A DNA stretch of 64,000 nucleotides from contig CAWGED010000005.1 of the NCBI GenBank assembly GCA_963821525.1, positions 32,001 through 96,000 of the forward strand. The letters are read 5' to 3'. The stretch comes from an uncultured Gemmatimonadales bacterium. Its GTDB lineage: Bacteria > Gemmatimonadota > Gemmatimonadetes > Gemmatimonadales > GWC2-71-9. Shown here in pieces: positions 8,707 through 46,579 of this stretch. The position numbers and the translations under genes are program-made. The notes beneath the pieces were generated by a model. That model was given only the letters and a program-made list of their open reading frames with translations. It was not told the origin of the DNA and did no database searches. Position 1 is the first letter of the stretch, and each line of letters starts with the position of its first letter.

Positions 8707-8722
8707 TGGCACGGGGATTGCC
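8707..8722 (+). promoter_or_regulatory. sigma54 (-24/-12) promoter
   Basis: TGGCAC-GGGGA-TTGC matches TGGCAC-N5-TTGC exactly, in the intergenic region ahead of the mini-protein and sulfatase-like array. Confidence 0.8.
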
Positions 8723-8894
8723 AACCAAACTTGCCTCAACCCGGCGCTTGCAGAGCCGCAGCCGGCGAGGTTGGGTAACTAACGCGGTAGTCCTCAGCGG
8801 CCCGGCCGGCGTCGTTCCGACGCCAGGTCATGAATAGGTCTCCGGACAGGCCTTCTGTCTGGAATTCGCACGAAAGGGTTCGGCTTCCGTGACG

Positions 8895-9052
8895 ATGCAT
8901 CGACTCGGCTTCAGCCTTGTTCTCTACGTCGGTCCCGATCAGATCCTTCCGCTGACCTCCATCCTCGGCGCGTCGGCGGCGCGCTCATGATTTTCTGGCG
9001 CCAGGTTGTGGGTCTCTTCCGGCGAATTCGCTCCGTCTTCGTTCGGGAATAG
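8895..9052 (+). CDS. Small (~52 aa) single-pass membrane protein, one apparent 1-nt deletion; not in ORF track
   Basis: ATG 8895 gives MHRLGFSLVLYVGPDQILPLTSILGA; restoring one base near 8972 continues xGGALMIFWRQVVGLFRRIRSVFVRE* (TAG 9050-9052); span is 158 nt, i.e. one short of in-frame; hydrophobic helix followed by Arg-rich tail. Confidence 0.65.
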
Positions 9053-9122
9053 CGGTCAGCATTGGCAGTGCGGGCCTCTGCGGCATGCGGAGGGGGTCCG
9101 CAGTGCGCTATAATCCCGTCTA

Positions 9123-10984
9123 ATGTCCCTCCCCAAGCCGGATCTCGCGCGGCCACCCCAGGAACCTCCCGACTGGAGATTCCGCTGGTTCATCATGGCC
9201 GCCGTGTCCCTGGCGCTCGCTTGTGGACTCTGGAAGCCTTGGCTTCCCTCCTACTGGGGACTCGCCAAGGAATCTTGAGCTGGAAGACGGGAAATTCGGT
9301 GAAGGTCCTGATAGCGGCTCCAGCCGTTTATCTCCTGGTCTTCCTTCCTGCCGCCATTCTCTTCGCCCTGCTCGACCGAGCGCTGAAGCAACGCTGGGCG
9401 GACGTCGCCATGATCTTCAGCTTCATCTCGCTGCTCGGCATTTCCGTCACCACTCTGATGCGTCCATGGTTTTCCGCCGGCACTTCTGTGCTGCTGGGGT
9501 TGGGCATGGCATCGGTGGCCCTCCGGATCTACGCCTCCAATCGCACCCGGTGGGGCTTTGCCCTGGTGAGAAGTGCGCCGTGGCTCGTGGCCGCGGCGAT
9601 GCTGATCGGAGTGATTGGCACCGGGTCCACGGGAATCGCCGAGCGGCTCGCGATCGCGCGCCTGCCCGCGGTCCCGGCTTCAGCGCCCAACGTGTTGCTG
9701 ATCGTGATGGATACCCAGCGCGCCGACCACCTCACCGCGTATGGATACTCCCGAGCCACCACTCCTCGGCTGGGGCGTCTCGCCGACGAGGGGGTCAGAT
9801 TCACATGGGCCACTTCGCCTGCCGTTACGACGCTGCCGTCTCATTCCAGCATGATGACGGGACAACTGGTCGGTGAACACGGCGCCGGGGTGAACAGCCG
9901 GCTGTTCCTCGATCGCCGGTTTCCTACCCTCGCCGAACAGATGCGGGTCCGGATACCTGACCGGGGGGTTCGTGGCCAATACGTATTGGACCGGACGTCA
10001 TACCGGGCTTAACCGGGGATTCATTCACTACGAGGACTTCTACGGGGGCCTGATGATGGGTTCACCCGGACCGTGATGGGCCGCGCCATCGCCTATCAGG
10101 TCTTTCCGATGATCGGACAGGTCGATATTCCGGGTCGCAACGCGCGGAAGATGTGAACCGCGAGCTACTCGGCTGGCTCGACCGTCACAGCGGTCGGCCC
10201 TTTTTCGCGTTTCTCAACTATTTCGACGTTCACGCCCCATATCGTCCTCCGCCCGGCTGGGCGGGCCGGTTCTCTTCCCAGGGCGACTCGGTCGCCCGCA
10301 CTCGAAAGATCGAGATCGGCGCGTGGAACGAAGGAACGGTACCGGATTCGGCCGTGCTGGCGGCCTGGCGGACTGTTACGACGAATCGCTGCTCTACCTT
10401 GACCATCAGATCGGTGTCTTACTCGACAGTCTTGCGGCGCGGCACCTGCTGGAGCACACCATCGTGATTGTGACCGGTGATCACGGCGAGAGCTTCGGGA
10501 GCACGGCACGGTGCACCACGGCGCCACGCTGTATCTCGAGCAGATCCGAGTCCCCCTAATTCTCTGGGGACCGGGCCGCATTCCCGCCGGGAGAAAAGTG
10601 GATCGCGCGGTCGATCTGCGCGCGATTCCCGCTACGGTGCTGGAGGTGGCTGGTCTGCCGGCAGCGGGGTTCCCCAGACGGTCGCTTCTCACCTACCTGG
10701 ATCCGGCCGATTCACCGCCGAGCCGGCCCTCTCCGAGGGTCCTCGCGTCCCGGGCAATCCTCCTACCTGGCAGACGGGAAAAGGATGGGTGAAATCGGTC
10801 GCGACTCAGCGCTGGCACCTGATCGAGTTTGAGTCGGGCAATCGTGAGCTGTACGATCTCCAGGCCGATCCGGCAGAGTTGCGAGACCTGGCAGCAGTCC
10901 CCGAGTTGCGGGACACACTGACGGTGCTGGAGCGGGGACTCCCCGGTCCCTTGGGTGCCAGATCGTTCCAGGAGTCCCCGGTGA
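9123..10984 (+). CDS. Membrane-anchored sulfatase-like hydrolase/transferase, copy 1; frameshifted
   Basis: N-terminal TM region; PNVLLIVMDTQRADHL; SPAVTTLPSHSSMMTG; RPFFAFLNYFDVHAPY; VTGDHGESFG; ELYDLQADPAE. Confidence 0.85.
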
Positions 10985-12797
10985 CCGAGCCCCCGGTCCG
11001 CTTCACCGGGTTCCGGTTGGTCGGGTTCGCCTTCGCGATCGGCCTGCTCTTCGGGTTCATCGAGGCCGGCCAGGCCGCGCTTTGATTCCTGGTTTTCTGC
11101 GCTCTCGACTGGCGCACGGCGACCGGCTATCCGGTACTGTGGGTCGGTCCCCTGTTTTATGGCGCCGCTTTCGCAGTGTGTGGGGCGCTCGCCGCCCTGG
11201 GCGCACTGGTGCTGCCCCGCGTGCCATGGGACATTCTCCTCCGGCCGGGACTCGCGCTGCTCGGCGGTTGGCTCGCCGTTGAGCTTCACCCCGTCCTGTT
11301 CAGTCAAATCACTTCGGCATTGATAGGTATCGGCCTCGCAGTGGTTCTTACCCGAGCCTATCGGGCGCGGAGAGAGCGCTGGTTCCTCGGGCGCTCAGTA
11401 TCCTGCCGCTCCTGATCGTTCTCGTGACCTGGCCGCGGCCGGCGCGTGGCTCGCGACGATACTGCACGAGCGCTCCCGTCTCGCGGCGCTCCCTGCCATT
11501 TCCGGCGAACGCCCGAACCTGATCCTGTTGGTGATTGACACCCAGCGCGCGGACCATCTCTCGTTTCATGGCTATTCGCGCCCGACCTCGCCCAATCTGG
11601 ATCGTTTTGCCGGACAGGGCTGGACGTTCGACAACGCGACTGCCAGCGCGCCTTGGACTCTGCCCAGTCACGCCACCATGATGACCGGTCACCCGCTGGC
11701 CGACCACCGGGCCGGCGTGGCGAAGCGCCCGTTCCTCGATGACCGGTTCCCCACGATCGCCGAAGCGCTCGGTCATGCCGGCTACGCTACCGGCGGCTTT
11801 GTCGCCAACGTCTTCCGGTGCGGCCGCCGTACCGGCATCGATCGGGGGTTCATACACTACGAGGATTATTTCGGACATCCCGGCGACGCGATCGCCCGCA
11901 CGGTGTTGGGCCGGTGGCTCGCCTACCACGCGCTTCCGGCCCTGGGCCGGCGCGACATTCCCGGCCGCAAGAGTGCCGCCGACGTAAATCGCGAGATGCT
12001 CCAGTGGATCGACGGGCTCAAGGGCCGCCCGTTTTTCGTTTCGCTAACTACCTGGATGTTCACAAACCGTTTCGCCCACCGGCTCCCTACCTCGGCCGGT
12101 TCTCGGGAACTACTCACTTGTCGCGGGCTCCCAGAGAGCCGATGATCGATATCGGAGCCCAGGGCGCCGAGCTCCGGCGGGAGTCTCCGGAGGAGATTCA
12201 GCGGGACATCGACGGCTATGACGAGTCGATTCTCTACCTCGATGCCCAGCTCGGGGAACTGTTCACCGCTCTGGAGCAGCGTGGGTTACTGCAGCGCTCC
12301 CTTGTGATCGTCACCAGCGACCACGGCGAAGCCTTTGGAGACCACGGACTCTTCTCCCATGGCAACAGTCTGTATCGCGATCAGATCCACATCCCTCTGA
12401 TCATGCACTGGCCCGGTCATCTCGACGTCGCGCGCTGGCATCAGCGGTGGGGCTCGATCAGATCGCGCCGACACTGGCGGAAGCGGCCGGACTCACGCAG
12501 GTGACATTCCCCTCACGCTCGCTGTTCGCGCCAGCGGATTCAGCTGCAACTGCGATGTCGCAGGTCGCCGGACGGACTGGGCTGCCGGCGGAGCTCCCGG
12601 TCTCCCGTGGCTGGCTCGCGGCGTTGGTCAACGATCGGTTCCACTACATCCGCTCGCAGGCGGGCACCGCGGAGCTGTTCGACATCACCCGTGATCCCGG
12701 GGAAGAGCACAACCTCGCCTCTGATTCGAGCTTCGCCGGAACCATGAAGGCCCTCGGAGATCGGCTCCACCGCCTCATGCCCAGGCCCATTCAATGA
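10981..12797 (+). CDS. Membrane-anchored sulfatase-like hydrolase/transferase, copy 2; frameshifted
   Basis: GTG 10981; TM region; VIDTQRADHL; SAPWTLPSHATMMTG; TSDHGEAFGDHGLFSHGNSLY; ELFDITRDPGE. Confidence 0.85.
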
Positions 12798-14612
12798 GTA
12801 TTTCGTCCGGACGGAGCGGCCCGGTCGTACGGTTGGCACTGTGGTTCGGCCTTGCTACCGGTTTCGGGGAAGTGATACTCCTCGGCCTGCGCCGCTATCT
12901 GCTGCATCGCTTCCTTTTTCTCGGGCAAGACGCGGCGTGGATGGTGCCGCTGGCGGATGCGCTGTGTTTTTCGCGGTCGGCCTGCTGCTCGCCTTGGCGC
13001 ATCGGTGGTGGCCGGGACGATTCACGGCGCCGGCGGTTGCCGGTGTGCTGGCAGGACTCTCGATCTTCGCCCTGCTCCTCATGTACGGTCCGTTGCACCA
13101 AGTGGCGTCGATCCTTATCGCGGTTGGCGTAGGCTACCAGGCCTCGCGGTTTCTCGCTCCCCGTTTCGATCGTTTTCTGGCGGTGGTTGGGCGAACGCTT
13201 CCGGTGCTCGTCGTCCTGCTGCTGGTGACGGCGGGGACGGTTCGCGGGCTCACGCTGTGGAACGAACGCCGAGCGGCCCGCCTGCGGCCTGCGCCCGTGG
13301 CGGGTGCTCCCAACATCCTGCTCATCGTCCTGGACACGGTGCGCTCCCTCAGCCTGAGTGTGTATGGCTACGAACGGGTGACCACCCCCGAGCTGGAACG
13401 CTGGGCGCCCAATGCGGTGCGCTTTGCCCGGGCTCTTTCCACCGCGCCGTGGACCCTGCCTTCCCACTCCACGATGTTCACCGGCCATTTCCCCCACGAG
13501 ATGACCGCCGACTGGCGCACGCCGCTCGACGGGCGCTATCCCACTCTGGCCGAGGTGCTCGAATCCCACGGATATCGGAGCGCGGGATTCGTCGCCAATA
13601 CGATGTACTGCAGCTACGAGACCGGGATACGGCGCGGCTTCGCGCATTACGAAGACTATCCCGTGAACCTGGGCCGCATCCTGTTCAGCTCCACGCTGGG
13701 CAAGCTGGTCAGCGTGAGCCCCTTCTTCCGCGATCGCGCGATCCGCAAGCGAGCGGCCGAAGTCAATCGTGAATTCCTCTCGTGGCTGGACAGAATCGTG
13801 AACCGGGGCCGTTCTTCGCCTTTCTCAACTACTACGATGCGCACGGTCCCTACCAGCCGCCCGCGCCCTTCGACCAGAAGTTCGGCGACGCCTCGCGGCG
13901 CAAGGAGCTGGAGCAGATGCGGGAAGATGCTCCCGCCCTCCAATGGCCGCCGGACGTGATTCAAGCCGCGAAGGACGCCTATGACGGCTCGATCGCCTAC
14001 ATGGACGCCGAGCTGGGAAACTTGTTCCACGAGCTGGATCGGCGCGGGCTCACCCAGAATACTCTGATCATCGTGACTTCCGACCACGGAGAGGAGTTCG
14101 GGGAGAACGGGGTCTTCTGGCACGGCAACAGCCTGTACCGCCCCTCCGTGCAGATCCCCCTGCTGATGAAATTGCCTGGTGGACTCCCCGCCGTCCGCGT
14201 AGTGGATGATCCGGTTTCACTCCGCGATCTGGCGGCCACGATCATGTCCGTCGCCCTGCCCGGCGTGGCCCACCCCTTTCCAGGTGCGAGCCTGAGCCGC
14301 TACTGGCTGTCGGAGAGACGGGATTCGGCGGCAACTGCCGACACCCTGCTCCAGGAGGTGAACTTCGATCCCAGGCTGCCGAGCAATACCCCGGTTTCCA
14401 AGGGCCCGATGCGCGCCGTCGTCTTGGATGGCGGGCGGCTAATCAGGCGGGGAGATGGCTACGAGGAGTTGTTCGATTTCAACCGCGATTCCTCGGAAAC
14501 CAGTAATCTTGCGACCTCCCCCGAGGCTGGCGCTCGGCTCGAACAGCTTCGTGGGGCGCTCAAGGCACTGGTGCCAGTGCGGGCCCAGGCCAACAGCACG
14601 CTTCGCCCATGA
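12794..14612 (+). CDS. Membrane-anchored sulfatase-like hydrolase/transferase, copy 3; frameshifted
   Basis: ATGA overlap; TM region; PNILLIVLDTVR; TAPWTLPSHSTMFTG; FLNYYDAHGPY; TSDHGEEFGENGVFWHGNSLY. Confidence 0.87.
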
Positions 14613-14691
14613 GCCGGGCCACTGCTGGGGAGACACCAGTCGCCGCAGCGACCAACGATTCACACTGACCTGACGCTCGGGTCGGACACCC

Positions 14692-16490
14692 ATGATCTCA
14701 CCAGCCGCACCACGACCGATCACAGCCCCTGCGGCCGCTCGAGACTCTGACGCTTGCTGCCTGGTTCGGACTGCTCGCCGGAATAGGTGAGGCCGTGGTG
14801 CTCACTTTCCGCAAGTTCGTTCTGCATGCCTCGGTGCTGCGTAACCTGGACATGCTGTGGACCGGTCCGCTCGCCTCGATGGTGCTGCTTTCCTGCCTCG
14901 GGATTCTTTTCCTGTTGTTGTCCCGGGTGTTACCGAGGCTGATCACATGGCGTTTCATCGTGGGCGTCTTTGCGGTGTTCGCCTTCCTTCCGATGCTCTT
15001 GGCCGCGGAGCAGCTGTACCGTGTCGCCGCTGGCCTCCTGGCGATCGGTCTGGGCGTTCAGACTCTACGCATCGTTGCTCCTCGTCGAGAGCGATTCGAA
15101 CGGCTGGTTCACAGGTCGCTCTGGGCCTTGGGACTCGCTGTCGCGCTGGTCGCCGGTGGCCTGCGAGCCTCGTGGGCGCTCCGGGAACGGCGCGGGCTGG
15201 CAGCTCTGCCGGCCGCGTCGAGGGGATCGCCGAACGTGCTGCTGTTGGTGCTCGATACAGTCGCGGCTTTGCGCCTCAGCCTGTATGGCTATCCTCGACC
15301 GAACACGCCTCACCTTGAAGAGTGGGCCCGGCGCGGAGTCCGATTCGATCGCGCCATGTCCACAGCCCCATGGACGCTGCCGTCTCACGCTTCGATCCTG
15401 ACTGGTCGCTGGCCCCATGAACTCAGCGCTGACTGGCTCGCTCCGCTCGATGGGACCTACCCGACCCTGGCCGAGGTGCTCGGAGCTCATGGGTATGCCA
15501 GCGCCGGCTTCGTGGCGAACTCCTATTGCAGCCGCGTCTTCGGGCTGCAGCGGGGCTTCCAGCACTATGAAGATTTCCCCGCGACCCCGGCACAGATTCT
15601 CTTCAGTTCGGCATTGGGCCGGCTGCTGGTGCCGAGCTACGGGTCCGGTTTCACAAGGTGGTTCGGCCCGCAGATGCGATCAACGGCGAGCTTCTGCACT
15701 GGCTCGACGATCGTCCCAAGAATCGGCCCTTCTTCGCCTTCCTGAATTACATGGATGCGCACGATCCCTATGAGCCTCCACCCCCATATGAGGAGCAGTT
15801 CAGCGACCCTGCCTCAATCCGGCTGGTCCATGGCCTTCGCCATGATCGAGTGATCGGCTGGTCTCCCGCCGAGGCTGAGGCCGCCAAGGGCGCCTACGAT
15901 GGTGCGTTGGCCTACCTCGACTCCAGGCTGGGAGCACTGTTCAGCGAGTTGGAACGGCGGGACTCCTGGCAAATACGATCGTCATTGTGACGGCAGATCA
16001 CGGTGAGGAATTCGGTGAACATGGGGTCTTCTACCACGGCAACAGCCTGTATCAGACGGTGGCTCGGGTTCCGTTGATCATCACCTGGATTGGCCACCTG
16101 CCCGCCGGGCGGATCTGACCCCGGTCTCCCTGCGAGACCTGGCGGCGACGGTGATGGATCTGACGGGAGTCGATTAGTCCAGCCTTTCCCCGGCCGTTCC
16201 CTGGAACGTTTCTGGGATCAGCGAGCAGATAAGGCTCCCGTCTCCGACACTCTGCTCATGAAAGTGAGCTATGTACCGAAACTCCCTCGCGGTACACCAG
16301 TGAGTCGGGGGACCATGCACGCGGTACAACTCGGCGGGTACCGGTTGATCGTCAACGGCGATGGGGTGGAGGAACTCTACGATTCGAGACAGCCTCGAGC
16401 GGAACGACCTTCAAGGAACCAGCGCTGGCCGATACCCTCGCGGCCCTCCGCGCGTCGCTCCCAAGTGCGACAAAGTCCGGGTTGGAATGA
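14692..16490 (+). CDS. Membrane-anchored sulfatase-like hydrolase/transferase, copy 4; frameshifted
   Basis: AWFGLLAGIGE TM start; PNVLLLVLDTV; TAPWTLPSHASILTG; FLNYMDAHDPY; TADHGEEFGEHGVFYHGNSLY; TGA 16488-16490. Confidence 0.85.
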
Positions 16491-16497
16491 ACCGACC

Positions 16498-18322
16498 ATG
16501 ACAGCCTCCTCGCCTGTCTCAACCGTCGGCCGAGATCCGGATTGCGGGACTGCATCTCGCTCTGTTTGGCCTCTGGTTGGGTCTGGTCTACGGCTTGATC
16601 GAGGCGCTCGAGGCCATGCTGTGGACTCTGATCCCGGGCGGGCTCTCCTGGCAGAACGGGACCGCTCCACCGATCCTCTGGGTGGCTCCGCTGGTCTATG
16701 GGGGGGCCTTCGGCTTGTGGCACTCCTTGTCGCGGGCCTCTCGAAACTTCTGCCGCGAGTCCGCTGGGACCTCGTCCTGGTCTTCCTGCTGGTTGCCGTC
16801 GGGGCCTAACTGGCGACTCGCTGCAAGGCCTGATCCTTGATGAGCGGGCTTGCCTATTGTTGGGGCTGGGTTCGGTGTTGCTCTGACCCGGGTCTACCGG
16901 CGGCGTCCCGAATGGTGGCTTTCCACCGCACGGGGAACCTTGCGAAGGCTCCTCGGTGCGGTGGCACTCACCGCGGTTCTAATCACCGTCGGCACACGGT
17001 TAGCCGAGGCCGTCGCCTCGCCAGCCTGCGGCAGCCCCAACGGGTCGCCCCAATATCCTCCTTCTCGTCATCGACACCCAGCCGGCCGATCACCTCTCCG
17101 TCTATGGATATGGCCGGCCGACCTCACCGACGCTGGAGCGTCTGGCCCAGGAGGGATGGCTCTTCGAAAACATGACCTCCAGTTCCTCGTGGACATTGCC
17201 GAGTCATGCCACGATGATGACCGGTCGGCAACAGCACGAGCACCGAGCCGGAGTCCTGCGGCGGCCCTATTTGGATCACAAATTTCCAACGATCGCCGAA
17301 CTTCTGCGGCAGGAGGGATACGCGACCGGCGGGTTCGTCGCGAACATTACTGGTGCGGAAGGGAAACCGGCTTGGGTCGGGCTTCATCCGATACGAGGAC
17401 TATTTCCAGAACATGGGCGACGCGCTGGTCCGCACCGTGCTGGGGCGGCGCCTGGCGTACGACGTGTGGCCCAAGCTGGGTCCCCGGAATATCCCCGGAC
17501 GGAAGTCTGCTGCCGACATGAATGCCCATCTGCTGAGCTGGATTGACGGGCTTCACGACCGCCCCTTCTTCGGCTTCGTGAACTACTTCGATATTCACGG
17601 GCCCCTCTTTCCACAGCCGCCGTATCTGGGGCGGTTCTCCGACGTCTCTCGCCGTCCGGCAGGTGAGCCGGGCGTGGCGCTAGGCGCCATCACTGGTGAG
17701 TTCAAACGGCTCACCCCGGAGCAGATCCAGGCCGATATCGATGCCTATGATGAATCGATCCTCTACCTCGATGCCCAGATCGGATCATTGCTGGATGAGC
17801 TGAAGAAGCGGGGCAAGCTGGACAACACCTTGATCATCCTCACCAGCGATCATGGGGAGAGCTTCGGAGAGCACGGCTTCTACTTCCACGGCCACAGTCT
17901 CTATCGGGAACAGGTGGATATCCCGCTGCTGCTCCGCTGGCCTGCCCGGCTACCGCCGGTACACACCGCACCGAGCCAGTGACCTGGAACAGATCGCGGC
18001 GACTATCGCTGAGGCTGCGGGGCTGCCGAGCGGTGCTGTGCCGGGCGTGTCGCTCTTGGGCAAACCAGATTCGGCCGCCGTCGGAATCGCCGAACTGGCG
18101 CAGCGTTCAACCGTGCCGGCTTCCTGGCCCGCATCCCGGGGCTGGCTCGCGTCGCTCACGACCGATTCATGGCATTTCATCATCCTACAGTCTGGTGAGG
18201 CCGAGCTTTACGACTTCCGTCGAGATCCACAGGAGCGGACCAATCTCGCCGCCGACTCGGTTCACCTGGTCGAGCAGTTTCGCGAGCGGTTCAAGCGTCT
18301 GGTACCGATTCCGATTCGATGA
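16498..18322 (+). CDS. Membrane-anchored sulfatase-like hydrolase/transferase, copy 5; frameshifted
   Basis: LGLVYGLIE TM start; PNILLLVIDTQ; SSSWTLPSHATMMTG; FVNYFDIHGP; TSDHGESFGEHGFYFHGHSLY; ELYDFRRDPQE. Confidence 0.85.
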
Positions 18323-20130
18323 AGGCCTCGCCTGCACCGGCACAGCGACTGACACCCCGCGCCATCCTCTTACTGGGACTCTCGGCTGGTCTGCTCACGG
18401 GTCTAGTTGAAGCGCTGGTGTTCCTATCGCGACGGTTGGTGCTCGGCCGCCTGGTTCACGTTAGCGCCCATTTCGGATGGATGGCCCCGATCGGGGACCT
18501 GGTACTCTTCGCCGGACCTGCGCTCGTACTGTCCCTGTGCGCTCGACTCTGGCCGAGGCTGATGCCGGCGCGACTGGCGTTCTTCCTGTTTGCTTTTCTA
18601 GGGTTCGCCGCCTTGTTGCTGATGGAACCGGGGTTTCACAAGGTGGCGGTCCTGGCCCTGGCAGCAGGCCTGGCGTGGCAGACCGCCCGAATGCTCTCAC
18701 GCAGAACTGGAGCGTTCGAGCAGCGGTCAGGGATTGTCATGGCTACGCTTGCAGCGTGCGTGACGCTGATCGGTGTAATGACGGTCGGAATACAGGCGGT
18801 GCGGGAGCGAATGGCAATCGGACGTTTACCTGCAGCGGCGGGGAATCGCCCGAACGTGCTCCTGATAATCCTCGACACGGTCAGGGCAAAGAGCCTCAGT
18901 CTTTACGGCTACAATCGAGACACCAGCCCATCGCTGACCCGTCTGGCGGGACGCGGAGTACGGTTCGAGCGGGCCTTCTCGACCGCGCCGTGGACGTTGC
19001 CCTCGCACGCCAGCCTGTTGACCGGTGACTATCCCCACCAACTGTCGGCGGACTGGATCGAGCCACTGGATCGCAAGGTTCCCACCCTGGCTGAGCGGTT
19101 CAGTGCCGAGGGTTATCTGACCGGTGGATTGGTTGCCAACGTGGGCTACTTGAGCTGGGAATTCGGACTGAACCGGGGGTTCGCTCACTATGAGGACTAC
19201 CTCTTTCGTCCGCGGGACATTCTCGAGTCAACCTCGATCGGGAGACAGCTGGACTACAGTTACCTCCTCCGTGACTTGCTACATACCGACCAGCATCTGG
19301 TTCGGATCGACGCGCCGTCCATCAGCCGGCGCTTCCTGAGTTGGGTAGACAAGCGCGGAGACCGCCCCTTCTTTGCTTTCCTCAACTATTACGACGCGCA
19401 CGGTCCTTATCTCCCGCCCTCGCCATGGGACCGTCGCTTCGGTGCGGCCCGTCAGGATAACCGCAGCACACTTCATCGTTTTCTGAGCCGGCCGTTCGGT
19501 CCGCTTCCCCAGGCGGTGGTCGACCGGGAGATGGAGCAATACGATGGTGCCCTCGCCTATCTCGACGACCAGATCGGTAAGCTCATCGAGGAGCTGGATC
19601 GTCGCCATCTGCTCGATCACACCATCGTGCTCCTGACCGCGGATCATGGCGAAGAGTTCGGTGAGCATGGCCTGTTCGATCATGGAAATTCGCTCTACCG
19701 GCCCTCGGTTCAGGTCCCCCTTCTGGTCGTGTACCGTGGGGTGGCTCCGGCGGGCAGGCAGGTGGAGCAGCCAGTGACCCTGCGGGATGTCGCCGCCACC
19801 CTGGCCGACTTGGCTGGACTGCCAGCTGGGGAGGTTCCGGGGGTCTCTTTGGCCCGATTCTGGCGAGAGAGTCCCCCGGTTGAGCCCCGTACGCAAAGCC
19901 CTGTCATTTCAGAGGTTAGCAAAGGGATCCGAACCCCGCCCTGGTATCCGGTCAGCAAGGGGGACATGCGTTCATTGGTAGAAGGGGGCCATCGCTACAT
20001 CTTGGGTGGGGATGGCACGGAGAAGCTGTTCAGTCTGAGCGACGTTTGGGAACGAAATCCCCTGTCTCTGTCGGATTCGTTGGTGCTACCCTTTCGGAAA
20101 GAACTTGCCCGCTGGCCATGGCACAGATAG
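18319..20130 (+). CDS. Membrane-anchored sulfatase-like hydrolase/transferase, copy 6 (intact, 603 aa)
   Basis: Uninterrupted ORF: about 5 hydrophobic segments in first ~160 aa, PNVLLIILDTVR, TAPWTLPSHASLLTG, FLNYYDAHGPY, TADHGEEFGEHGLFDHGNSLY. Confidence 0.92.
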   Translation: MKASPAPAQRLTPRAILLLGLSAGLLTGLVEALVFLSRRLVLGRLVHVSAHFGWMAPIGDLVLFAGPALVLSLCARLWPRLMPARLAFFLFAFLGFAALLLMEPGFHKVAVLALAAGLAWQTARMLSRRTGAFEQRSGIVMATLAACVTLIGVMTVGIQAVRERMAIGRLPAAAGNRPNVLLIILDTVRAKSLSLYGYNRDTSPSLTRLAGRGVRFERAFSTAPWTLPSHASLLTGDYPHQLSADWIEPLDRKVPTLAERFSAEGYLTGGLVANVGYLSWEFGLNRGFAHYEDYLFRPRDILESTSIGRQLDYSYLLRDLLHTDQHLVRIDAPSISRRFLSWVDKRGDRPFFAFLNYYDAHGPYLPPSPWDRRFGAARQDNRSTLHRFLSRPFGPLPQAVVDREMEQYDGALAYLDDQIGKLIEELDRRHLLDHTIVLLTADHGEEFGEHGLFDHGNSLYRPSVQVPLLVVYRGVAPAGRQVEQPVTLRDVAATLADLAGLPAGEVPGVSLARFWRESPPVEPRTQSPVISEVSKGIRTPPWYPVSKGDMRSLVEGGHRYILGGDGTEKLFSLSDVWERNPLSLSDSLVLPFRKELARWPWHR

Positions 20131-22000
20131 TTGCGGGAGTCCCGTTGCAGTCCCGAAAAGTGTGCGACGAGGGGGGGGCGGATCGGTCCGCGCTTCAGCC
20201 GTCGCTTCTGATCTTGGCTGTGTGGTTCGCGCTCGCCGCCGGGCTGCTGGAAGGGGCCTGGAGGGTGTTTCAGCGCCTGGGATTGCACCAGTTCGTTGGC
20301 CTGCCGTTCGATATCGTCTGGATGGCTCCGACAGTCGATTTTCTCTGGTTGTTGCTACCGACCCTCCTGCTGATACTGGCCCGTCGGCTGACTCCGGGGA
20401 AACTGCCATTCGGCGCCCTGGTCGGAATCCTGGGTGGCCTGGCCGCTTTGCCCCTCTTCCTGCTGGTCACGTCCATGCATAAGGCGGTCGCGCTGGTGCT
20501 CGCCGTGGGCGTGGGCATTCAACTGAGTCGTCTGGTGTCGGGACGGGCGCTGGCGGTTGCTGCCTTCATGCGGCGGACCCTGCCGCTGCTGGGCATTCTG
20601 TTCGCCAGCGGGGCCAGCCTGGTGTTGAGCATCGAATGGTTGAATGAACGTGCCGCATCGACCCGCTGGCCCGCCGCATCTCGAGACAAACCCAATGTTC
20701 TTCTGCTGGTCTGGGACACGGTACGAAACGATGAGTCAGCGTCGCGGGATACACCCGGCCTACCACACCGTTTCTCGAGTCAGTGGCCCGGGAGGGAGTT
20801 CGCTTCGAGCATGCGTTCAGCACCGCGCCCTGGACCCTCCCCTCCCATGGGAGCATGTTCACCGGTCAGTGGCCCTTCATGTTTTTCCGGGGGATCTGGG
20901 CGCCCGTGGAGATGCCGACACCGACCCTGGCGGAGGCGCTCTCTCAGGCGGGCTATCGGACCGGCGGGTTTACCGCCAACCTGGCCTACACCACCCGGGA
21001 GCACGGGATTCACAAGGGCTTTGCGCATTACGAGGATTTCAGCCGCACGATGGGGACAGCGCTCGCCAAGTCGCGCATCAGCCGGGTGATCCTGGATCCG
21101 CAATGGGTACGCCACATCATCGGATACTACGATTTGATGGGGCGGAAGCGGGCGGACGTGATCAACACCAGTTTCCTGCGCTGGCTGGACCAGGATGGCT
21201 CCAGGCCATTCTTCGGATTTCTCAATTATTTCGACGCCCACGCGCCCTATATCGCTCCCTCACCGTTCCGGGAACGGTTTGCTCTCGCCCGGCGGGGAAA
21301 GTATGAGATCATTCCGCAGCCGGGACAGGGAGGCGGTCCCTCGCGTACCCCTGAGGCCCACCGATACTGGCGCGCCGAATACGACGCCCTCATCGCATCC
21401 CTGGATGACGCGACCCGGAGGCTGTTCGCCGAGCTGGCCCACCGAGGTCTGCTCGACAATACCATCGTCATCATCACCTCGGACCACGGCGAGCAGTTCG
21501 GCGAACATGGCAAGTGTTGCCACATGAACACCCTCTATCGGGCGGTCCTGGAGGTCCCACTCTTGATCCGGTTTCCACCTGCCGTGCCGGCCAATCAGTC
21601 CATTCCAGCCCCGGTGAGTCTTCGGGACATACCGCGCACCGTGCTCACCCTGACCGGTGTGGCCGCGGAAAGTATCCCTGGGCGCTCCCTCACTCGCTTC
21701 TGGAAACCGGAACCCGCTGCGCCCGATTCGTTGATTCTGGCCGAGTTGTCCACCTCGCGCCGTGGTAACCTCGGCCCTCACGCGGTGGTGTCCAACGGTG
21801 TCTTCTACATTCGGGCAGGAAAGGATTCGGTTGAGCTCTACGACCTGCTGGACGACACGGCCCAGGCCACCAGCCTGCATCGTCATCCGGCTCGCAGCGC
21901 CGATCTGGCTCGCTTCAGACATGTGACGGACAGCCTCGCCGAGCTTTACCGGCGGAGGAGCCACACAACCGACGAAGTCGAAGAGGAGGACGAGCAGTGA
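20118..22000 (+). CDS. Membrane-anchored sulfatase-like hydrolase/transferase, copy 7; frameshifted near 20730-20770
   Basis: TM region; PNVLLLVWDTVR; TAPWTLPSHGSMFTG; FLNYFDAHAPY; TSDHGEQFGEHGKCCHMNTLY. Confidence 0.88.
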
Positions 22001-23827
22001 GCACGGACCCTTCGACTGCACTGGAGGTGCCGAGCCACAGGCTGATCGGGTGGGGCGCCGCGCTTGGCATCGGCGCCGGTCTGATCGAGGCCGCGATGGC
22101 GACCATTCGGTCGGGTCGCACCGCGCTCTTGATTGGGAGGGTGCGGCGACTTTGTCTGGTTGGCCCCGCTGGTTGGTCTGCTGCTCGGCTTGAGCAGCGT
22201 GATTCTCCTGATCGGAGCGCGCCGGCTGTGCTCCCCGCGCGTTTACCCCTCGGGTGATCCTCACCATCGTCGGCACCGTCGTTTTCCTAAGCCCGATTTT
22301 TCTTTTCCAGCGGATGCATCGACTCGCCGCGCTGGTGCTGGCGCTGGGAATCGGGTTCCAGCTGGCGGCCTGGCTCACTCGGCGAGCCGCCGCATCGCGC
22401 TGATGCACTGGATGCTTCCACTTGGTAATGTTCTGCTGGATCGCTGGCGGACTGGGATTGGAGGTGGTACGGAACCTGCGCGAGCGCGCCGCCATCCGAA
22501 GGCTCCCACCCGCCGAAGCCGATCGTCCGAACGTCTTGCTCCTGGTGCTGGATACGGTTCGCGGAATGAGCCTGAACCTGTACGGGTACCCGCGAGCTAC
22601 CACTCCTGAGTTGAAGAAGCTGGCTGAGCGAGGCGCCCGGTTCGACTACGCGGTGGCGCCGGCGCCATGGACCCTCCCTTCTCACGGGTCGATCTTCTCT
22701 GGACGTTTACCCCGGGAATTCAGCACCACCTTCCGTACCCCGTTCGACGAGAAATTCCCCGTGCTCGCCGAGGCGCTCGCCGGTCACGGCTACGTGACCG
22801 GTGGGATTCGTCGCCAACATCTGGTATTGCGCGGCTGGCCACGGTCTGGAGCGGGGATTCCTCGCAGTATCGCGACTACCCCCGCACCACGTGGCGAGTG
22901 GTCGAAGGGTCGGCACTCGGTCGTTGGCTCTTCGAGCAGGCCACCGTCCGCAGGTTTGTCGGCTGGTACGAGATGCTTTGGCGCAAGAACGCCGGACGGG
23001 CGGTGAACGAATTTCTCGCAGTGGGAAGCGAAGCCGCGCGATGGACGTCCCTTCTTTGCGTTTATCAATTTCTTCGACGCCCACAACCCATTCGTCCCAC
23101 CGGCGCCTTTCGATACCATGTTCGCGACCGTCCAGGACGACACTATGATCCGCGCTTCAAGATGCCGGAATTTTCCGACCTCACGGCCGATGAGATTGAG
23201 TTCACCCGGGACCAGTACGAAGGAGCTATCGGATACATCGACCGGTCCGTCGGGCATATGTTGACCGAGCTGGATCGGCGCGGCGTCTTGAAGCACACGA
23301 TCGTTGTGATCACCTCCGACCACGGCGAGCAGTTCGGCGAGCACGAGCTCCTGGGGCATGGCAACAGCCTGTATTCGCAAGTGCTCCACGTTCCGCTCGT
23401 GATCGTGTATCCCCCCAAGGTGCCTGCCGGCTCGGTCGTGGCGCCCCCCGTAGGGCTTCGCGACATCCCGACCACGGTCCTTGACCTTGCTGGTCTGCCG
23501 AACGATCGCGGCCTTCAGGGGCGCTCCCTTACCCGCTTCTGGGAACGTCCAATGGACTCCGGGGACGTGGATGAGGTCATCGTTTCCGAAATGCCGGGCG
23601 CGAGCGCTGCCAATGCCGTCTCTCTCATTGCGGACGGGCATCACTACGTCCGCTGGTGGAAGCGGGCGGAAGGCGTCTACGACCTTCGAACCGATCCGAC
23701 CGAACAAACCAATCTGGTCGGCACTCCCATAGGAGATTCGCTGCTGACCCGGTTCCGGGACATGGCGGCTGAACTGTCCCAGAAGTTTCCCGGGCTCAGG
23801 AAGGGGGAGGCGAATGACACGCTCTGA
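21997..23827 (+). CDS. Membrane-anchored sulfatase-like hydrolase/transferase, copy 8; frameshifted
   Basis: GTGA overlap; TM region; PNVLLLVLDTVR; PAPWTLPSHGSIFSG; FINFFDAHNP; TSDHGEQFGEHELLGHGNSLY; YDLRTDPTE. Confidence 0.87.
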
Positions 23828-24024
23828 GGCCCGAGCGGCCGGAGTCATTCGACGGTCTGGTGTCATTACATTTGCGACCGATGATGACTCGCTCGAGCTC
23901 TATGGCGCCAAGGCTCGTCCACCCCCATTTCGTTGGGTAGTGCTGAAATCGACGATGACCACCGCTGACGACTGCTGCGCGGTGACTGCGAACCACGGCA
24001 GCGAAGCTAAGAAAGGTGAGGCGA

Positions 24025-25886
24025 GTGACACATTCTGACGTGATGGCCCCAGGCCACGGCGCCGCTCCTCGGGCGGCCCAGGCACAACCTGTGGCCGAAG
24101 AGCGGATGAACATCGTGATCGGCGGCCATGTCGACCACGGGAAGAGCACGATCGTGGGCCGGCTGCTTGCCGACACTCATTCGCTGCCCGAGGGGAAGCT
24201 CGAGGCGATCAAGGCGCTCTGCGAGCGCACCGCCAAGCCGTTCGAATACGCCTTCCTGCTCGACGCGCTTAAGGACGAGCAGTCGCAGGGCATCACGATC
24301 GACGCAGCGCGGGTCTTCTTCAAGACGGCCAAGCGCCACTACATCATCATCGATGCGCCAGGGCACATCGAGTTCCTGAAGAACATGGTCACCGGCGCCT
24401 CCCGCGCCGAGGCTGCCCTCCTGGTCATCGATGCCAAGGAAGGAGTCCAGGAGAATTCCCGCCGCCACGGCTACATGATGTCCATGCTCGGCATCAAACA
24501 GATCGCCGTGCGTGGTCAACAAGATGGATCTGGTCGATTACAGCCAGCGCCACTACGAGGGGATCGTCCGGGAGTACACCGATTTCCTGAACCGGATCGG
24601 GGTTCATCCCGCGTGCTTTATTCCCGCCGCGGGACGGGAAGGCGACAACATCGCGAGCCCGTCGCCCAAGCATGAAGTGGCACACGGGTCCGACGGTGCT
24701 CCAGGCGCTGGATCAATTCAAAAGCGAAGGTCCCGCGGTAGGCCAGCCGTTCCGGATGCCGGTACAGGACGTCTACAAGTTCACCAAGCAGGGAGACGAC
24801 CGCCGCATTATCGCCGGAACCGTGGAAACCGGAACGCTGCGGGTCGGAGATGAAGTCGTCTTCTATCCTTCCGGCAAGCGCAGCCGGGTAAAGTCGATCG
24901 AGTCCTTCAACACGCCGGTCCGGCAGCAGGCGGAGGCGGGCCAGGCTGCGGGCTTCACGCTGTCGGAACAGATCTACGTCGCGCGGGGTGAGCTGGCCAC
25001 GGTCGCGACCGAGCCCAAACCCAAGGTCACTACCCGTCTCCGGGTGAGCCTCTTCTGGCTCGGCAAACAGCCCTTCATCAAGAAGAAGGATTACCTGCTC
25101 AAGCTGGGCTCGGCCCGCGTGCCGGCCCGTCTCGAAGAGATCACCCGGGTAATCGACGCCTCCAACCTGAATACCAGCGACACCAAGGACCGGGTGGACC
25201 GCCACGCTGTGGCGGAGTGCGTCCTCAAGCTCAATCGAGCGCTCGCTTTCGATCTCGCCGAGGAAATCGACGCGACCAGCCGCTTCGTCCTGGTGGACGA
25301 CTACGAGATCCGCGGCGGAGGCATCGTCCGCGAGGCGCTGCCCGACCGGCAGACCGAAATTCGCGAAAAGGTGATGCTCCGGAACTACAAGTGGGAGCCG
25401 AGCATCATTCAGCCGGAGCGCCGGGCAGAGAAGTACAGCCAGAAAGCCTCTCTGCTCCTCATCACCGGTGCCAAGGAGAGCGACCGCAAGTCGCTCGGCA
25501 AGGAGGTCGAGGCCCGGCTGTTCGAGGACGGACGCGTGGTCTACTTCCTCGGGATCGGGAATGTGCTCTACGGCATTGATGCCGACATCGAGCGCAAGTC
25601 CGAGAACCGGCAGGAGCACCTCCGCCGGCTGGGTGAGGTCGCCAACCTCATGCTCGATTCCGGGGCGATTCTCATCGTGACCGCAGCCGACCTGTCGCAG
25701 GAAGACCTGGAGGTCATCAAGACATCGGTTGATCCTGACCGGATCGAAACCGTCTGGGTGGGAGACAGCGTGACGACCGACATCACCTGCGACCTGATCC
25801 TGGCCGAACAGGAGGCCGAGGAAGAGGGGGTCGAGCGGATCAAGCGTCTGTTGCAGGACAAGGGCGTCCTGTTCCGGCCCTGGTGA
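24025..25886 (+). CDS. cysN: Sulfate adenylyltransferase large (GTPase) subunit with degenerate C-terminal APS-kinase-like domain; frameshifted near 24510 and 24670
   Basis: [54 protein letters not shown]-terminal [14 protein letters not shown]...[26 protein letters not shown]. Confidence 0.9.
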
Positions 25887-27250
25887 GCATGGTGAACGAG
25901 TCCGCCTCCGCGGTTTCTCCCGACGCCCTCACCCGGCTCACCGCGCTTGCGGTGAGAGCGGGCCAGGCGGCCATGGTGCACTACCACGACGGGGTCGCGG
26001 TCCGCCAGAAGGGCGACAAGGGCCCGGTTACCGCTGCCGATCATGCATCGCACGCCGTGATCGTTGAGGAGTTAGCGGCCTGGGACTCCTCGATCCCCAT
26101 CATTTCGGAGGAAGGGGACATTCCCGGGTACGAAGCCCGCCGGGCTTGGCGCCGATTCTGGTTGGTGGATCCGCTCGACGGCACCAAGGAATTCATCCAG
26201 AGGAACGGCGAGTTCACGGTGAACATCGCCCTGATCGAAAACGGAGTTCCTGTCCTCGGTGTGATCTATGCGCCGGCGTTGAGCCTGCTCTATTACGCCG
26301 GTCAGGGACTCGGCGCGTGGAAGCGCGAGGCTGGTGGTCAGCCGGAGCGTATCCTTTCTCGCCCACCGCTGCCGGGCCATGCCCTTCGGGTGGCGGAGAG
26401 CCGGTCCCATCCTTCAGAGGAACTGGAGCAGTATCTCAAGACGATCAAGGTCGCGGACCGGGTGCCGGCCGGGAGCTCGCTCAAGTTCTGCTGGGTCGCT
26501 GAAGGAAAGGCGGATATCTATCCCCGCCTGGGCCCGACGATGGAGTGGGACGTAGCGGCCGGGGACTGCATTTTCCGTAACTCCGGTACGCATGGGCCCC
26601 GGCGCTCGTCGCTCGTCTACAACCAGCCCGAGCTCCGCAACCAGGGGTTCATCGTCGGGCTGGACGACAGCGAGCTGGACACCTCCAGCAGTCGTGGCCG
26701 CGTGCTCTGGTTTACCGGCCTCTCCGGTTCGGGCAAGAGCACCATCGCGCGGCTGGTGGTGGAAGAACTGGAACGCCGGGGTAGTCCGGTCGAATATCTC
26801 GATGGAGACACGATCCGCGATATTTTCCCGGCGACCGGCTTCACTCGCGAAGACCGCGACCAGCACATCCGCCGGGTGGGTTACCTGGCCAGCCGCCTCG
26901 AGCGCCACGGAGTGACGGTAATCGCGTCGCTGGTGTCCCCCTACCGCGCTTCACGGGACTTCGTGCGCGGGCTGTGCCGGGACTTCGCCGAGGTCTGGGT
27001 CGCGACGCCGTTCGAGGAATGTGAGCGTCGAGATGTCAAGGGACTCTACGCCAAGGCCAGGCATGGCGAGATCAAGAACTTCACCGGGCTCGACGACCCG
27101 TACGAGCCTCCGGTGACGCCGGAGCTGACCATTCAGACTACGGGGAGAACTCCCGAGGAGTGTGCCGGGGAGGTCATCGGATGGCTGGATCAGATGCCAA
27201 CCGTAGTCGCGGAAGCCGGCAGGGTGCCGCAGCTTCACGAGAACTATTGA
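25883..27250 (+). CDS. cysQ: 3'(2'),5'-bisphosphate nucleotidase CysQ fused to adenylyl-sulfate kinase CysC
   Basis: Single intact 455-aa [33 protein letters not shown] (CysQ) followed by [36 protein letters not shown] (CysC). Confidence 0.93.
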
Positions 27251-27260
27251 GGACTTAGTC

Positions 27261-28143
27261 ATGGATCATATTGATCAGCTGGAACACAGGAGCGTGCACA
27301 TCTTCCGTGAAGCCTATGCCAACTTCAAGAGCCTCTGCATGCTCTGGTCGATCGGCAAGGACAGCACGGTCCTGCTCTGGCTCGCGCGCAAGGCCTTCTT
27401 CGGGCATGTGCCGTTCCCCCTCGTTCACATCGATACCTCGTTCAAAATTCCGGAGATGATCCGCTATCGGGATCGCCTCGCGGCCGAGTGGAACCTGAAC
27501 CTCATCTACGGGCAGAACGAAGGCGCGCTGCGGGAGAAGCGCACGTTCCCCGACGGGGCCGTGGATCGCATCACCTGCTGCAGTCTGCTCAAGACTGAAG
27601 CGCTGAAAAGGACCCTTTCCGGGGAATGGCCGCGCTACCGCTTCAATCACGCGAAGAAGGCCTACGAGCTCGACAAGAACACCGAGCCCTTCACCGGCGT
27701 CATCGTCGGCGCCCGGGCCGACGAGGAAGGCAGCCGCTCCAAGGAGCGGTATTTCTCACCCCGGAACCGCGAGAACTCCTGGGATGTGGGCGACCAGCCG
27801 CCCGAGTTCTGGAACCAGTACAAGACCGACTTCGCGCCGGGCACCCACCTGCGGATCCACCCGCTGCTGGACTGGACCGAGCTGAACATCTGGGAATACA
27901 TCGAGCGGGAGAACATCCCGACGGTGTCGCTCTACTACAACCACGGCGACGGGATCAGGTATCGCTCGCTGGGTTGTGGACCCTGCACCAAGCACGTCGA
28001 GTCCGACGCGCAGAAATGTTCAGGAGATCATCGTCGAGCTGAAGACCGGCAAGTTCGCAAACATCGCGGAGCGGTCGGGCCGGGCCCAGGACAAGGACGA
28101 TGGCGGCGGGCTCGAGACTCTTCGGCGCGACGGGTACATGTGA
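27261..28143 (+). CDS. cysD: Sulfate adenylyltransferase small subunit; frameshift near 28015
   Basis: [42 protein letters not shown]-terminus [24 protein letters not shown] (TGA 28141-28143). Confidence 0.93.
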
Positions 28144-44509: not shown

Positions 44510-46579
44510 CTACTTTGAGAGCGACACGGTATCCCGCGGCAGGACCACCGGGTCCGTTTCGGCTCGCGGAGTGGGAGGCGCGGCTGGCGCGGCAGGCAGC
44601 GCCGACCAGCGGAGACGCAGGATCGTCGCCAGCGACCGCAACCCGTCACCCATTGTCGTGCGGCGAACCTTCTCCGGCGAAATGGGGAAGTAGTACACCG
44701 GCGTTTCGAACACCTCGGCTCGCTGGCGGAGAAGGTTGGAAAGCAGCACCTGGTTGAATTCCCGTTGGCGGTAGTCGAAGGGCCCGCTGCGGAGGAAGCT
44801 GGAGCGCACCACCCGCGCTCCCGAGAGTGTGTCGGAAATGAAGCGCCCGTAGAGCGTGAAATAGGCGAGGCTCAGGACGTGCGACCCGATGTAGCTGACG
44901 ATGCTCTTGAGCGTCTTGCTCCGGTACACGAGCTGGTAGGCCGCCTTGATGTCGTTGACCGACAGACGACGGCTTCCCCATACCGCATCGAGCCGTCCGC
45001 CCTCGAGGTGCCGTGCCAGGCTCACGATGTCCTCGCCCTTGTACATGCCGGAGGATTCGAACAGTAGCACGTAATCGTATCCCGGATCATTCACGACTCG
45101 GGCGAATGCGGCCTCTATGGACGAGCCCTGGGTCGCGAGATTCCTCGCCTCGAAGGGAAGGGAGTTCCCGAAATCTTCGTCGAAGGATTCGGGGCCCTCG
45201 TAAAACAGCGTCACCACGACCGGAAGCTGATCTATTCCGGCGCGGACCATCTCGATGATGGTCTGCCCGGTCTTGTTGAGCGACTGGCCCTCCACCAGGA
45301 GCACCGCCAGCCGCAAACGCTCGTCCCGTCGCAGGAACGACTTGATGAACGGGGTGAGGACCTTGGTCGCGTCGTGGCGGCCGGTTACTCCGTCCTCGTA
45401 GTTCCCGATACGGACCAGTCGCGGGTCCTCGATACTGTCGAGGTGGCCCAGCGGAACGTACGGCGCGCCGCTTTCGCTCCGGCCTGGGTCGTTGATGAAA
45501 TAGTGGGTGATGAGGCACGGAGTGGGAATGCTCAGCTGCCCCTTTTCCCGCAGGTAGTAAAGTGCTTTGTCTACCAGGTCCACGGCGCTGCTGCCGGAAA
45601 TCTCCGCGTCCTCATGCAGGTTGGTGATCAGGACCTTGACCGCCCGGAGATTCCGAGCGATGGCCCTGCCGATGCCCGGCGTGAAGTATGAGGGGAACAG
45701 GCTCGAGTGCTGGGTGCCCGGCGCGAACACGATGATGTCCGCCTCGGCAATCCTGGCGAGCAGGCGCGGGTTGGGAACCGGCTTGACGGAATTGGCGGCA
45801 AGGAAGCGCTGCAACGCAGCCGGCCCTTCTCGCCCCAGTTGCTTTCGCTCTTCGGCGGTCGTCAGTCGGCGGAGGAGATAAATGTCCTGCAGGTACTGTG
45901 GCTTGTCGGCGGTGACGATGTCGGCCTCGGTGGCGAGCAGGTTCCCGTCACCGTCAACCGCGACCAGGCAGAGATTGGCGCCGTTGGTCACGTTTTCGAT
46001 CATGCCGGCGGGAATTCCCATCAGCCCGGTGTAGTCCTCGACTGCGCGGTTGAAGTCGCGGCCGACCTCGAGGAAGCATCCGGCGAAAACCAGATTGCCC
46101 AGGCTGCAATCGGCGAAGCTGAACCGGTACCCGGTGCGGGCACGCTCCTGCTCGAAGCGATCGAGACGGTTCGCCAGAAGGTCGGCGGTGCGACGGTCGA
46201 TCCCGCCGACCAGGTTCCGCAACGTGCGCTGGAACTCATCCGCCGCTGGCGGCCCGCCTTCACGAAGTTGAGCGAACGATGCTCTCGCCTGCTCGAAACC
46301 GTACTCATCGGGAAAGCGGAGATCGAGCAGTTTGACGAGCCGTTCATCGCAGGTATGCAACTCGGTCGCGAGCCGCGACGCGTTCTTCCGGAAATCGGAG
46401 GGGCCAAGACAGTCGCCGAGGAAACGACGCACCTCGCCGGTGGACAGCCCGTCGTCGTACCCATTGATCGCAAGGGTGAGCGCGATGCGCTCGCTGCGAA
46501 TGAGCTCCTGCGAGAGCACGCTCGACCCGCGTCCCCCGGTGAAGAGGACTACGCGAACCGGGTTCTGGGAGCTGGCCAT
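44510..46579 (-). CDS. CofD/YvcK(GlmR) family domain fused to C-terminal DPM1-like GT2 domain
   Basis: Single intact ORF; LFTGGRG, NGYDDGLSTG, GPSDFRKN, SLGNLVFAG, ADIIVFAPGTQHSSLFPS; C-terminal DAVWGSRR, FISDTLSG, ETPVYYFP. Confidence 0.75.
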   Translation of the reverse strand: MASSQNPVRVVLFTGGRGSSVLSQELIRSERIALTLAINGYDDGLSTGEVRRFLGDCLGPSDFRKNASRLATELHTCDERLVKLLDLRFPDEYGFEQARASFAQLREGGPPAADEFQRTLRNLVGGIDRRTADLLANRLDRFEQERARTGYRFSFADCSLGNLVFAGCFLEVGRDFNRAVEDYTGLMGIPAGMIENVTNGANLCLVAVDGDGNLLATEADIVTADKPQYLQDIYLLRRLTTAEERKQLGREGPAALQRFLAANSVKPVPNPRLLARIAEADIIVFAPGTQHSSLFPSYFTPGIGRAIARNLRAVKVLITNLHEDAEISGSSAVDLVDKALYYLREKGQLSIPTPCLITHYFINDPGRSESGAPYVPLGHLDSIEDPRLVRIGNYEDGVTGRHDATKVLTPFIKSFLRRDERLRLAVLLVEGQSLNKTGQTIIEMVRAGIDQLPVVVTLFYEGPESFDEDFGNSLPFEARNLATQGSSIEAAFARVVNDPGYDYVLLFESSGMYKGEDIVSLARHLEGGRLDAVWGSRRLSVNDIKAAYQLVYRSKTLKSIVSYIGSHVLSLAYFTLYGRFISDTLSGARVVRSSFLRSGPFDYRQREFNQVLLSNLLRQRAEVFETPVYYFPISPEKVRRTTMGDGLRSLATILRLRWSALPAAPAAPPTPRAETDPVVLPRDTVSLSK

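Follow-up and report, generated by a model that had tools for sequence, protein, structure and literature searches.

Sulfatase-fold membrane enzymes of a Gemmatimonadales glycan locus and their linkage to PAPS synthesis genes and a conserved mini-protein

A glycan locus of an uncultured Gemmatimonadales soil bacterium (GenBank assembly GCA_963821525.1) contains a block in which a promoter-like site is followed by a mini-gene, eight paralogs of the sulfatase fold, cysN, a cysQ-cysC fusion, and cysD. The block lies in a stretch of 64,000 nucleotides, hereafter the window (contig CAWGED010000005.1, positions 32,001 to 96,000; contig C5 of genome G000, which is 81% complete), whose nearest homolog loci are those of Gemmatimonadales. 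Comparison with other genomes ties the enzyme array to sulfation, and the genomic evidence for this is good. CysDN and CysC make 3′-phosphoadenosine 5′-phosphosulfate (PAPS), and CysQ clears 3′-phosphoadenosine 5′-phosphate (PAP); we propose that the block adds sulfate to a surface glycan, which could be an exopolysaccharide, a lipid-linked glycan, or an exosortase-linked glycoprotein glycan. That the paralogs transfer sulfate, whether their catalytic domains face outward or inward, we regard as fairly probable; the narrower proposal that they are outward-facing ping-pong glycan sulfotransferases, which would draw on PAPS by way of a relay, we put at about even. Observed are the layout of the block, the conserved active site, the fold, the co-inheritance, and the linkage of the genes; that the group is sulfate, which way it moves, the topology, and the relay are inferred. 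This variant of sulfatase-fold glycan modification is real and appears to be undescribed, and a search of the openly available literature found no description of the bacterial system or of the mini-protein. An earlier note on this DNA had suggested that the sulfatase-like paralogs install sulfate; its interpretation is partly supported, and it did not include the finding that the mini-protein belongs to a conserved family, with an invariant Tyr, which tracks the enzymes.

Linkage to sulfate activation across genomes

Among 151 Gemmatimonadota genomes (core family threshold E < 1e-150, best 8 candidates per genome scored), 17 carry the core enzyme family, and the mini-protein occurs in 15 of these and in none of the other 134; 12 further genomes have only more distant enzyme homologs. 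ATP sulfurylase is present in 13 of the 17 core genomes, as CysDN in 8 and as a CysC-Sat fusion in 5, and lies within 3 kb of a mini-protein or enzyme gene in 12 of the 13, the exception being G131 (starts of open reading frames, ORFs, were assigned mechanically). Two non-homologous cassettes are tied to the system in this way. In G092, L044, and L051 the order is mini-gene, cysN, enzyme, cysQC, cysD; the Sat cassette stands head to head with the mini-gene in G027, G090, G094, and G136, and Sat is also found near the system in L048, L062, L064, and the acidobacterium G389. Four of the five CysC-Sat cases have genes for a PHP-family protein and/or a Na:sulfate symporter near the mini-gene.

The alternative cassette recurs in a fuller form, with the CysC-Sat fusion, the PHP-family gene (which we take to be possibly a PAP phosphatase), the symporter, and a second CysC, all divergent from the mini-gene (L111:9093-14056, L112:8841-12282, L113:4152-6767, L114:7830-12208).

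Canonical sulfotransferases are distributed differently around ATP sulfurylase in genomes with and without the family. Within 10 kb of it, Sulfotransfer_3 genes occur in 1 of these 13 genomes that have the family and in 5 of 10 that lack it and have a CysD of the same type; the unpublished G053 is left out of this comparison. The other five family-lacking genomes comprise G019, with Sulfotransfer_3 at 13.8 kb; G117, with a sulfite reductase gene adjoining ATP sulfurylase; G140, with siroheme-pathway and cysteine-synthase-like genes; G142, with an unlinked Sulfotransfer_3; and G025, with none. G021 and G099 (99% complete) carry the cassette beside the family, and no Sulfotransfer_1, 2, or 3, Stf0, or NIR_SIR match was found in them, the Stf0 and Sulfotransfer_2 negatives being weak because those searches matched in no control genome. 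Survey-wide, CysD is found in 22 of 151 genomes and APS (adenosine 5′-phosphosulfate) kinase in 64 of 151; both tallies take in G053, the second also G093, and no other claim rests on them.

In the host genome the cysD, cysN, and cysC of the window are the sole copies. Neither CysH nor sulfite reductase (NIR_SIR) was found in this 81%-complete genome, which argues against assimilatory sulfate reduction and bears out the earlier remark that PAPS genes stand here without reduction partners; of 18 related genomes searched for NIR_SIR, 2 gave a match.

Active site, fold, and the transferred group

All eight paralogs keep the motifs D-T-x-R, T-L-P-S-H, N-x-x-D-x-H, and D-H-G...H, and have a sulfatase/AlkP catalytic fold with its metal ligands. 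In copy 6, which is intact, the catalytic domain (about residues 176-603) carries D186, R189, T226, H230, N274, D359, H361, D442, H443, and H455. T226 is conserved in 146 of the 147 homologs aligned, and the T-x-P-x-H around it, found in all eight copies, aligns to C-A-P-A-R of choline sulfatase; H230 occupies the sulfatase Arg position and H455 the C-terminal Lys position, both in 147 of 147 homologs. None of the eight has the formylglycine signature C/S-x-P-x-R of S1 sulfatases, and the paralogs cannot be formylglycine sulfatases. Nor does the block contain any domain with the P-loop sulfotransferase fold and 5′-PSB motif (PF00685, PF13469, PF09037, PF03567). The family comprises at least 6644 clusters at E ≤ 1e-20, named by their sources, where named at all, “sulfatase” or “arylsulfatase A-like”; in the close relative L007 the paralogs are 35 to 86% identical (mean 42%). 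We propose that the eight are metal-dependent sulfotransferases of the sulfatase fold which would take sulfate onto Thr226 and then pass it to a sugar hydroxyl, and that the divergence of the paralogs may reflect service to different positions or acceptors.

The best sequence and structure matches are choline sulfatase, S1 sulfatases, and phosphonate monoester hydrolases (PMH), as would be expected if the paralogs were instead formylglycine-independent hydrolases acting on sulfate or phosphoester substituents of the glycan that the cell itself makes, to trim, edit, or scavenge them. We consider this quite improbable. In S1 sulfatases sulfate is released by the formylglycine gem-diol, which Thr cannot form; compared with these enzymes and PMH (6fny/7pth, SpAS 4upl/4upi, PMH 2vqr), the paralogs have T-x-P-x-H in place of C/S-x-P-x-R and His in place of the sulfate-binding Lys, and are membrane anchored in a biosynthetic context. 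The genome's formylglycine-generating enzyme genes are elsewhere, one adjoining a separate sulfatase, and the genes linked to the array, as described above, activate sulfate and do not take up sulfated substrates. Among the 71 window ORFs scanned for families (of 238 of at least 90 residues), no CysH/CysI, sulfotransferase, glycoside hydrolase, or SusC/D match was found, and a degradative polysaccharide-utilization locus is ruled out by the lack of hydrolase, SusC/D, and formylglycine motif.

Proteins of this fold that add sulfate are known, in the literature we found, only from haloarchaeal genetics. The sulfatase-annotated Agl30 (VNG1056C) and Agl31 (VNG1057C), UniProt Q9HQQ3 and Q9HQQ2, of Halobacterium salinarum were found by genetics to sulfate an N-glycan; one is membrane associated, with at most one predicted helix, and the other soluble, and the accessible portions of the report name no donor or mechanism and do not contain the words “PAPS” or “donor” (PMC11980604). 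Our enzymes resemble them in that a sulfatase fold is encoded in a glycan biosynthesis cluster, and differ in having five helices, arrays of up to eight, and linkage to PAPS genes and the mini-protein. Among plasmid sequences the catalytic domain finds its best matches in haloarchaeal “sulfatases”, with E values as low as 4e-49; three such relatives examined all adjoin glycosyltransferase genes and share the Thr, one of them sharing 16 of 18 active-site positions.

The catalytic domain follows five predicted membrane helices, an arrangement also seen, together with a Thr nucleophile and flanking His, in YejM/PbgA, LtaS, EptA/MCR-1, and BcsG. YejM matches the enzyme both over its full length and over the membrane domain alone; Foldseek returned no match for the membrane domain at E ≤ 0.001, and EptA and LtaS membrane domains are not among the 50 matches listed in the comparison that gave YejM. 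The most basic loop lies directly before helix 5 (4.5 K+R), and the catalytic domain is probably periplasmic, anchored by the helices. The five hydrophobic segments, the basic loop, and the YejM match thus speak against a sulfotransferase whose domain faces the cytoplasm, with PAPS or APS as its direct donor, lipid-linked glycan precursors as acceptors, and the mini-protein as scaffold or regulator. This inward-facing arrangement, which we think unlikely, would make a relay unnecessary; it would also suit the soluble haloarchaeal relatives, which start directly at the catalytic domain, the solubility of Agl31 (PMC11980604), the lack of a conserved disulfide in the catalytic domain, and the failure to find a loader gene in this genome.

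Several observations weigh against sulfate transfer by the paralogs. i) The genome-wide sulfotransferase profile search that the earlier note had called for found five canonical loci on other contigs (three on C6, one on C1, one on C19), four of them among glycan genes. Because of these, the PAPS genes of this genome, taken alone, need no unusual consumer, and the case for sulfation therefore rests on other genomes; the claim that no classical sulfotransferase is present holds for the window ORFs scanned and fails for the genome, and the argument from a dedicated consumer is weakened accordingly. ii) Searches found no PAPS gene in G059, which has the order mini-NPP-NPP-enzyme, and neither PAPS genes nor a mini-gene in the enzyme-bearing G123 and G149; in G144 an APS kinase gene adjoins the mini-gene and no ATP sulfurylase was found. 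iii) G025 carries an orphan PAPS cassette. iv) Sulfotransfer_3 matches occur somewhere in 11 of the 16 other core genomes. v) A full CysDN cassette lies within 10 kb in only 8 of 78 homolog loci. vi) Mini-gene loci were found in 5 of 251 acidobacterial genomes; one of the five has Sat, another contains a canonical sulfotransferase gene within the unit, and the remainder have neither nearby. vii) The genomes are kin, so that the twelve cases may amount to two or three independent associations.

The canonical sulfotransferases of this genome and the lack of PAPS gene matches in G059, G123, and G149, together with the five-helix architecture, would sit comfortably with phosphoform transfer. The transferases among YejM/PbgA, LtaS, EptA/MCR-1, and BcsG move phosphoforms from phospholipids; by analogy, the paralogs could be EptA/LtaS/OpgB-like enzymes that take a group such as phosphoethanolamine or phosphoglycerol off membrane lipids and put it on glycans, the PAPS genes serving the canonical sulfotransferases. 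Such a reaction poses no transport problem, and D186/T226/H361/D442/H443/H455 mirrors E246/T285/H395/D465/H466/H478 of MCR-1. We nevertheless hold it to be possible but rather unlikely: the EptA-type NCBIfam models fall far under their cut-offs (PRK09598, the best, 47.6 vs 561 bits; NF028537, 44.2 vs 500), the sulfatase C-terminal sheet is kept, and phosphoform transfer leaves unexplained the 12 of 13 adjacency to two non-homologous ATP sulfurylase cassettes, the nesting of the enzyme gene inside the cys genes, and G021 and G099. Of the earlier interpretation, linkage to PAPS genes is supported by the physical tie of the enzymes and the mini-protein to such genes in other genomes.

The canonical cluster at G000:C6:83181-92115 (L085) contains an Stf0-type and two Sulfotransfer_3 genes among GT2, methyltransferase, and PLD-like genes, and is probably a second PAPS consumer; of the loci at G000:C1:1171-1596 and C19:339637-340373, one edges a Wzy/GT locus and the other is isolated. 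A cysN-GT2-cysQC-cysD cassette with neither family member nor mini-gene occurs in G025:C9 and G142:C93 (L092, L099, L157, L158); in G025, searches also turned up neither a sulfotransferase nor a sulfite reductase that would use the PAPS.

The mini-protein and a possible relay

Besides the motif Y-x-G-P-[DE]-x3-P-x2-S, the mini-protein has a single hydrophobic helix and ends in a basic C-terminal tail. Its family comprises 1265 clusters at 50% identity, with the Tyr present in 146 of the best 150; there was no match in Pfam or NCBIfam, and the ESM Atlas matches (0.87 to 0.88) are unnamed hypotheticals. Because the Tyr lies directly N-terminal of the helix, which is followed by the basic tail, it is probably on the outer face. 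A mini-gene lies within 10 kb of an enzyme gene in 25 of 78 homolog loci, and of the 16 metagenome mini-gene loci, 5 adjoin an enzyme gene and the other 11 a gene for a soluble NPP-like AlkP protein.

Since PAPS is cytoplasmic, outward-facing sulfotransferases would require a relay across the membrane. With its invariant Tyr, its membrane helix, and its joint inheritance with the presumed outer transferase, the mini-protein is the best candidate for a carrier, as Tyr-O-sulfate, or for an obligatory subunit; that it carries sulfate covalently we consider a tentative and rather doubtful proposition. Enzymes of the sulfatase fold have a natural donor in aryl sulfates, and the Tyr aryl sulfate could serve the transferase array as donor in patterning sulfate on surface glycans. 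Loading of the Tyr could fall to a soluble NPP-like AlkP pair or to a canonical sulfotransferase, depending on the genome. Such a pair, lacking signal peptides, stands beside the mini-gene in 7 core genomes (L101:15459-17327, L116:8238-11548, L119:7247-10548) and is a candidate for a cytoplasmic loading step. The full route, from PAPS to the mini-protein Tyr, to the periplasmic Thr-nucleophile transferases, and on to surface glycans, is speculative and, in our view, rather unlikely as a whole. A further point against it is that the soluble NPP-like partner was not found in this genome, so that no loader is evident here. Prediction of a complex between enzyme and mini-protein scored 0.02 (mark 0.32) and is evidence for neither side.

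DltX/DltD O-acylate envelope polymers through a tyrosine relay. Tyrosine relays for acetyl groups have been demonstrated in OatA and PatA, and in OatA and PatA/PatB the group passes from a cytoplasmic donor to an extracytoplasmic transferase via an invariant Tyr on a membrane peptide (PMC12148441). Our comparison of the mini-protein with OatA, PatAB, and Dlt is one of analogy, without sequence relation: those systems use acyl chemistry and MBOAT/AT3 and SGNH folds, whereas here sulfate is proposed and the family scan found no MBOAT/AT3 loader in the block. If correct, the route would do for sulfate what the Dlt/Pat tyrosine relays do for acyl groups, allowing glycan sulfation outside the cytoplasm without PAPS export. 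Together with its relatives, the locus connects a large bacterial enzyme family with the making of PAPS and with mini-proteins that form a conserved but unannotated family; if the sulfotransferase reading is right, many “polysaccharide-degrading sulfatases” of soil bacteria would be biosynthetic genes and a new source of regioselective carbohydrate sulfotransferases, and the donor question could be tested by single mutants of the enzyme Thr and the mini-protein Tyr.

Two loci have two mini-gene copies each (L117:3915 and 7845; L134:102 and 426). In the acidobacterium G362 a carbamoyltransferase gene (L153:7792-9714) lies immediately upstream of the mini-gene, a hint that the mini-protein/AlkP module may serve other chemistries too. 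A UbiA-family prenyltransferase gene stands directly ahead of the mini-gene in L029, L044, L051, and L100, and is separated from it by one gene, a flippase, in L007 and L030; in this genome UbiA-family and flippase genes are found upstream of the window (G000:C5:21813-22703). A role for a polyprenyl carrier is conceivable.

Anatomy of the locus

The mini-gene (8895..9052, about 52 codons, with a 1-nt assembly deletion near 8972) and all eight enzyme genes are co-oriented, as the earlier note had it, and lie on the + strand. In a tblastn search with the intact copy 6 (603 residues, 18319..20130; match about 18319-20127) the array spans about 9.1 to 23.8 kb. The other copies lie at approximately 9062..10950 (copy 1, frameshifted; match about 9317-10729), 10960..12790 (copy 2; 11462-12689), 12794..14612 (copy 3; 12952-14519), 14705..16500 (copy 4; 14720-16380), and 16547..18322 (copy 5; 17019-18298), and, with approximate starts, at 20127..22000 (copy 7; 20202-21853) and 22040..23827 (copy 8; 22227-23770). 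Profile matches confirm the following three + strand genes: cysN (24016..25886, frameshifted in the assembly), the GTPase subunit of ATP sulfurylase with a degenerate APS-kinase tail; the cysQ-cysC fusion of PAP phosphatase and APS kinase (25883..27250; CysQ 273 vs a cut-off of 229 bits, ApsK 191 vs 139), also a single ORF in L106 of the same genus; and cysD (27261..28143, with a 1-nt assembly insertion near 28011; PRK05253 306 vs 195), the catalytic subunit of ATP sulfurylase.

Copy 6 is the only paralog in one ORF; the other seven are split, mostly by 1-nt indels, which are also found in the mini-gene, in cysN and cysD, and in genes that precede the block. These breaks are assembly errors, because close-strain contigs from four studies, among the matches listed, have the missing bases: that behind 8972 is present in 3 of 4 runs, and those behind 10369 and 10496 in 4 of 4. 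The 15 pieces that align with at least 72% identity are free of in-frame stops, and orthologs are intact in L007 (7 enzyme copies), L010 (8 copies), and, for the mini-gene, L007 and L009. A pseudogene array is thereby ruled out.

The candidate σ54-type -24/-12 site (8707..8721, +) is an exact TGGCAC-N5-TTGC, the single occurrence in the window and one of 4 in the genome. It is identical in a same-genus genome and consensus-like in L044, L051, and L100, and an activator gene for σ54 lies at 58108-59898. At least one such sequence arises by chance in 14 of 100 shuffles, and the site was not found in L007 or L030 among the homolog loci compared. The earlier claim that the block is σ54-driven is thus plausible as regards the site itself, with patchy conservation of the control.

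The block is flanked by exosortase, Wzc, Wza-like, GT2/GT4, GT-C/PMT, flippase, UbiA-family, and asparagine-synthase-like genes, a biosynthetic setting that agrees with the earlier description of an exosortase/Wzc locus without hydrolase or SusC/D genes, and supports the view that the block builds rather than degrades. The sole hydrolase-like signal near the locus is a match to a GH30 C-terminal domain at G000:C5:20082-20771 (L088:8082-8771, - strand), about 20 kb upstream of the block. Of the 78 homolog loci, 21 have a gene for a GT-C/PMT-like membrane protein (family of L025:7413-9512) behind the array; a search with that query did not find this type in the host genome. Within the window, an ORF at 44510-46633 (-) combines a CofD/YvcK-like domain with a possible glycosyltransferase part and adjoins HAD and NTP-transferase genes of the glycan locus, and a single ORF at 59895-62063 (+) joins a histidine kinase to a WecB epimerase, which may be a frameshift artifact. 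A crude genome scan gave one convincing PEP-CTERM-like tail among three pattern matches (G000:C1:15402, -), a possible exosortase substrate.

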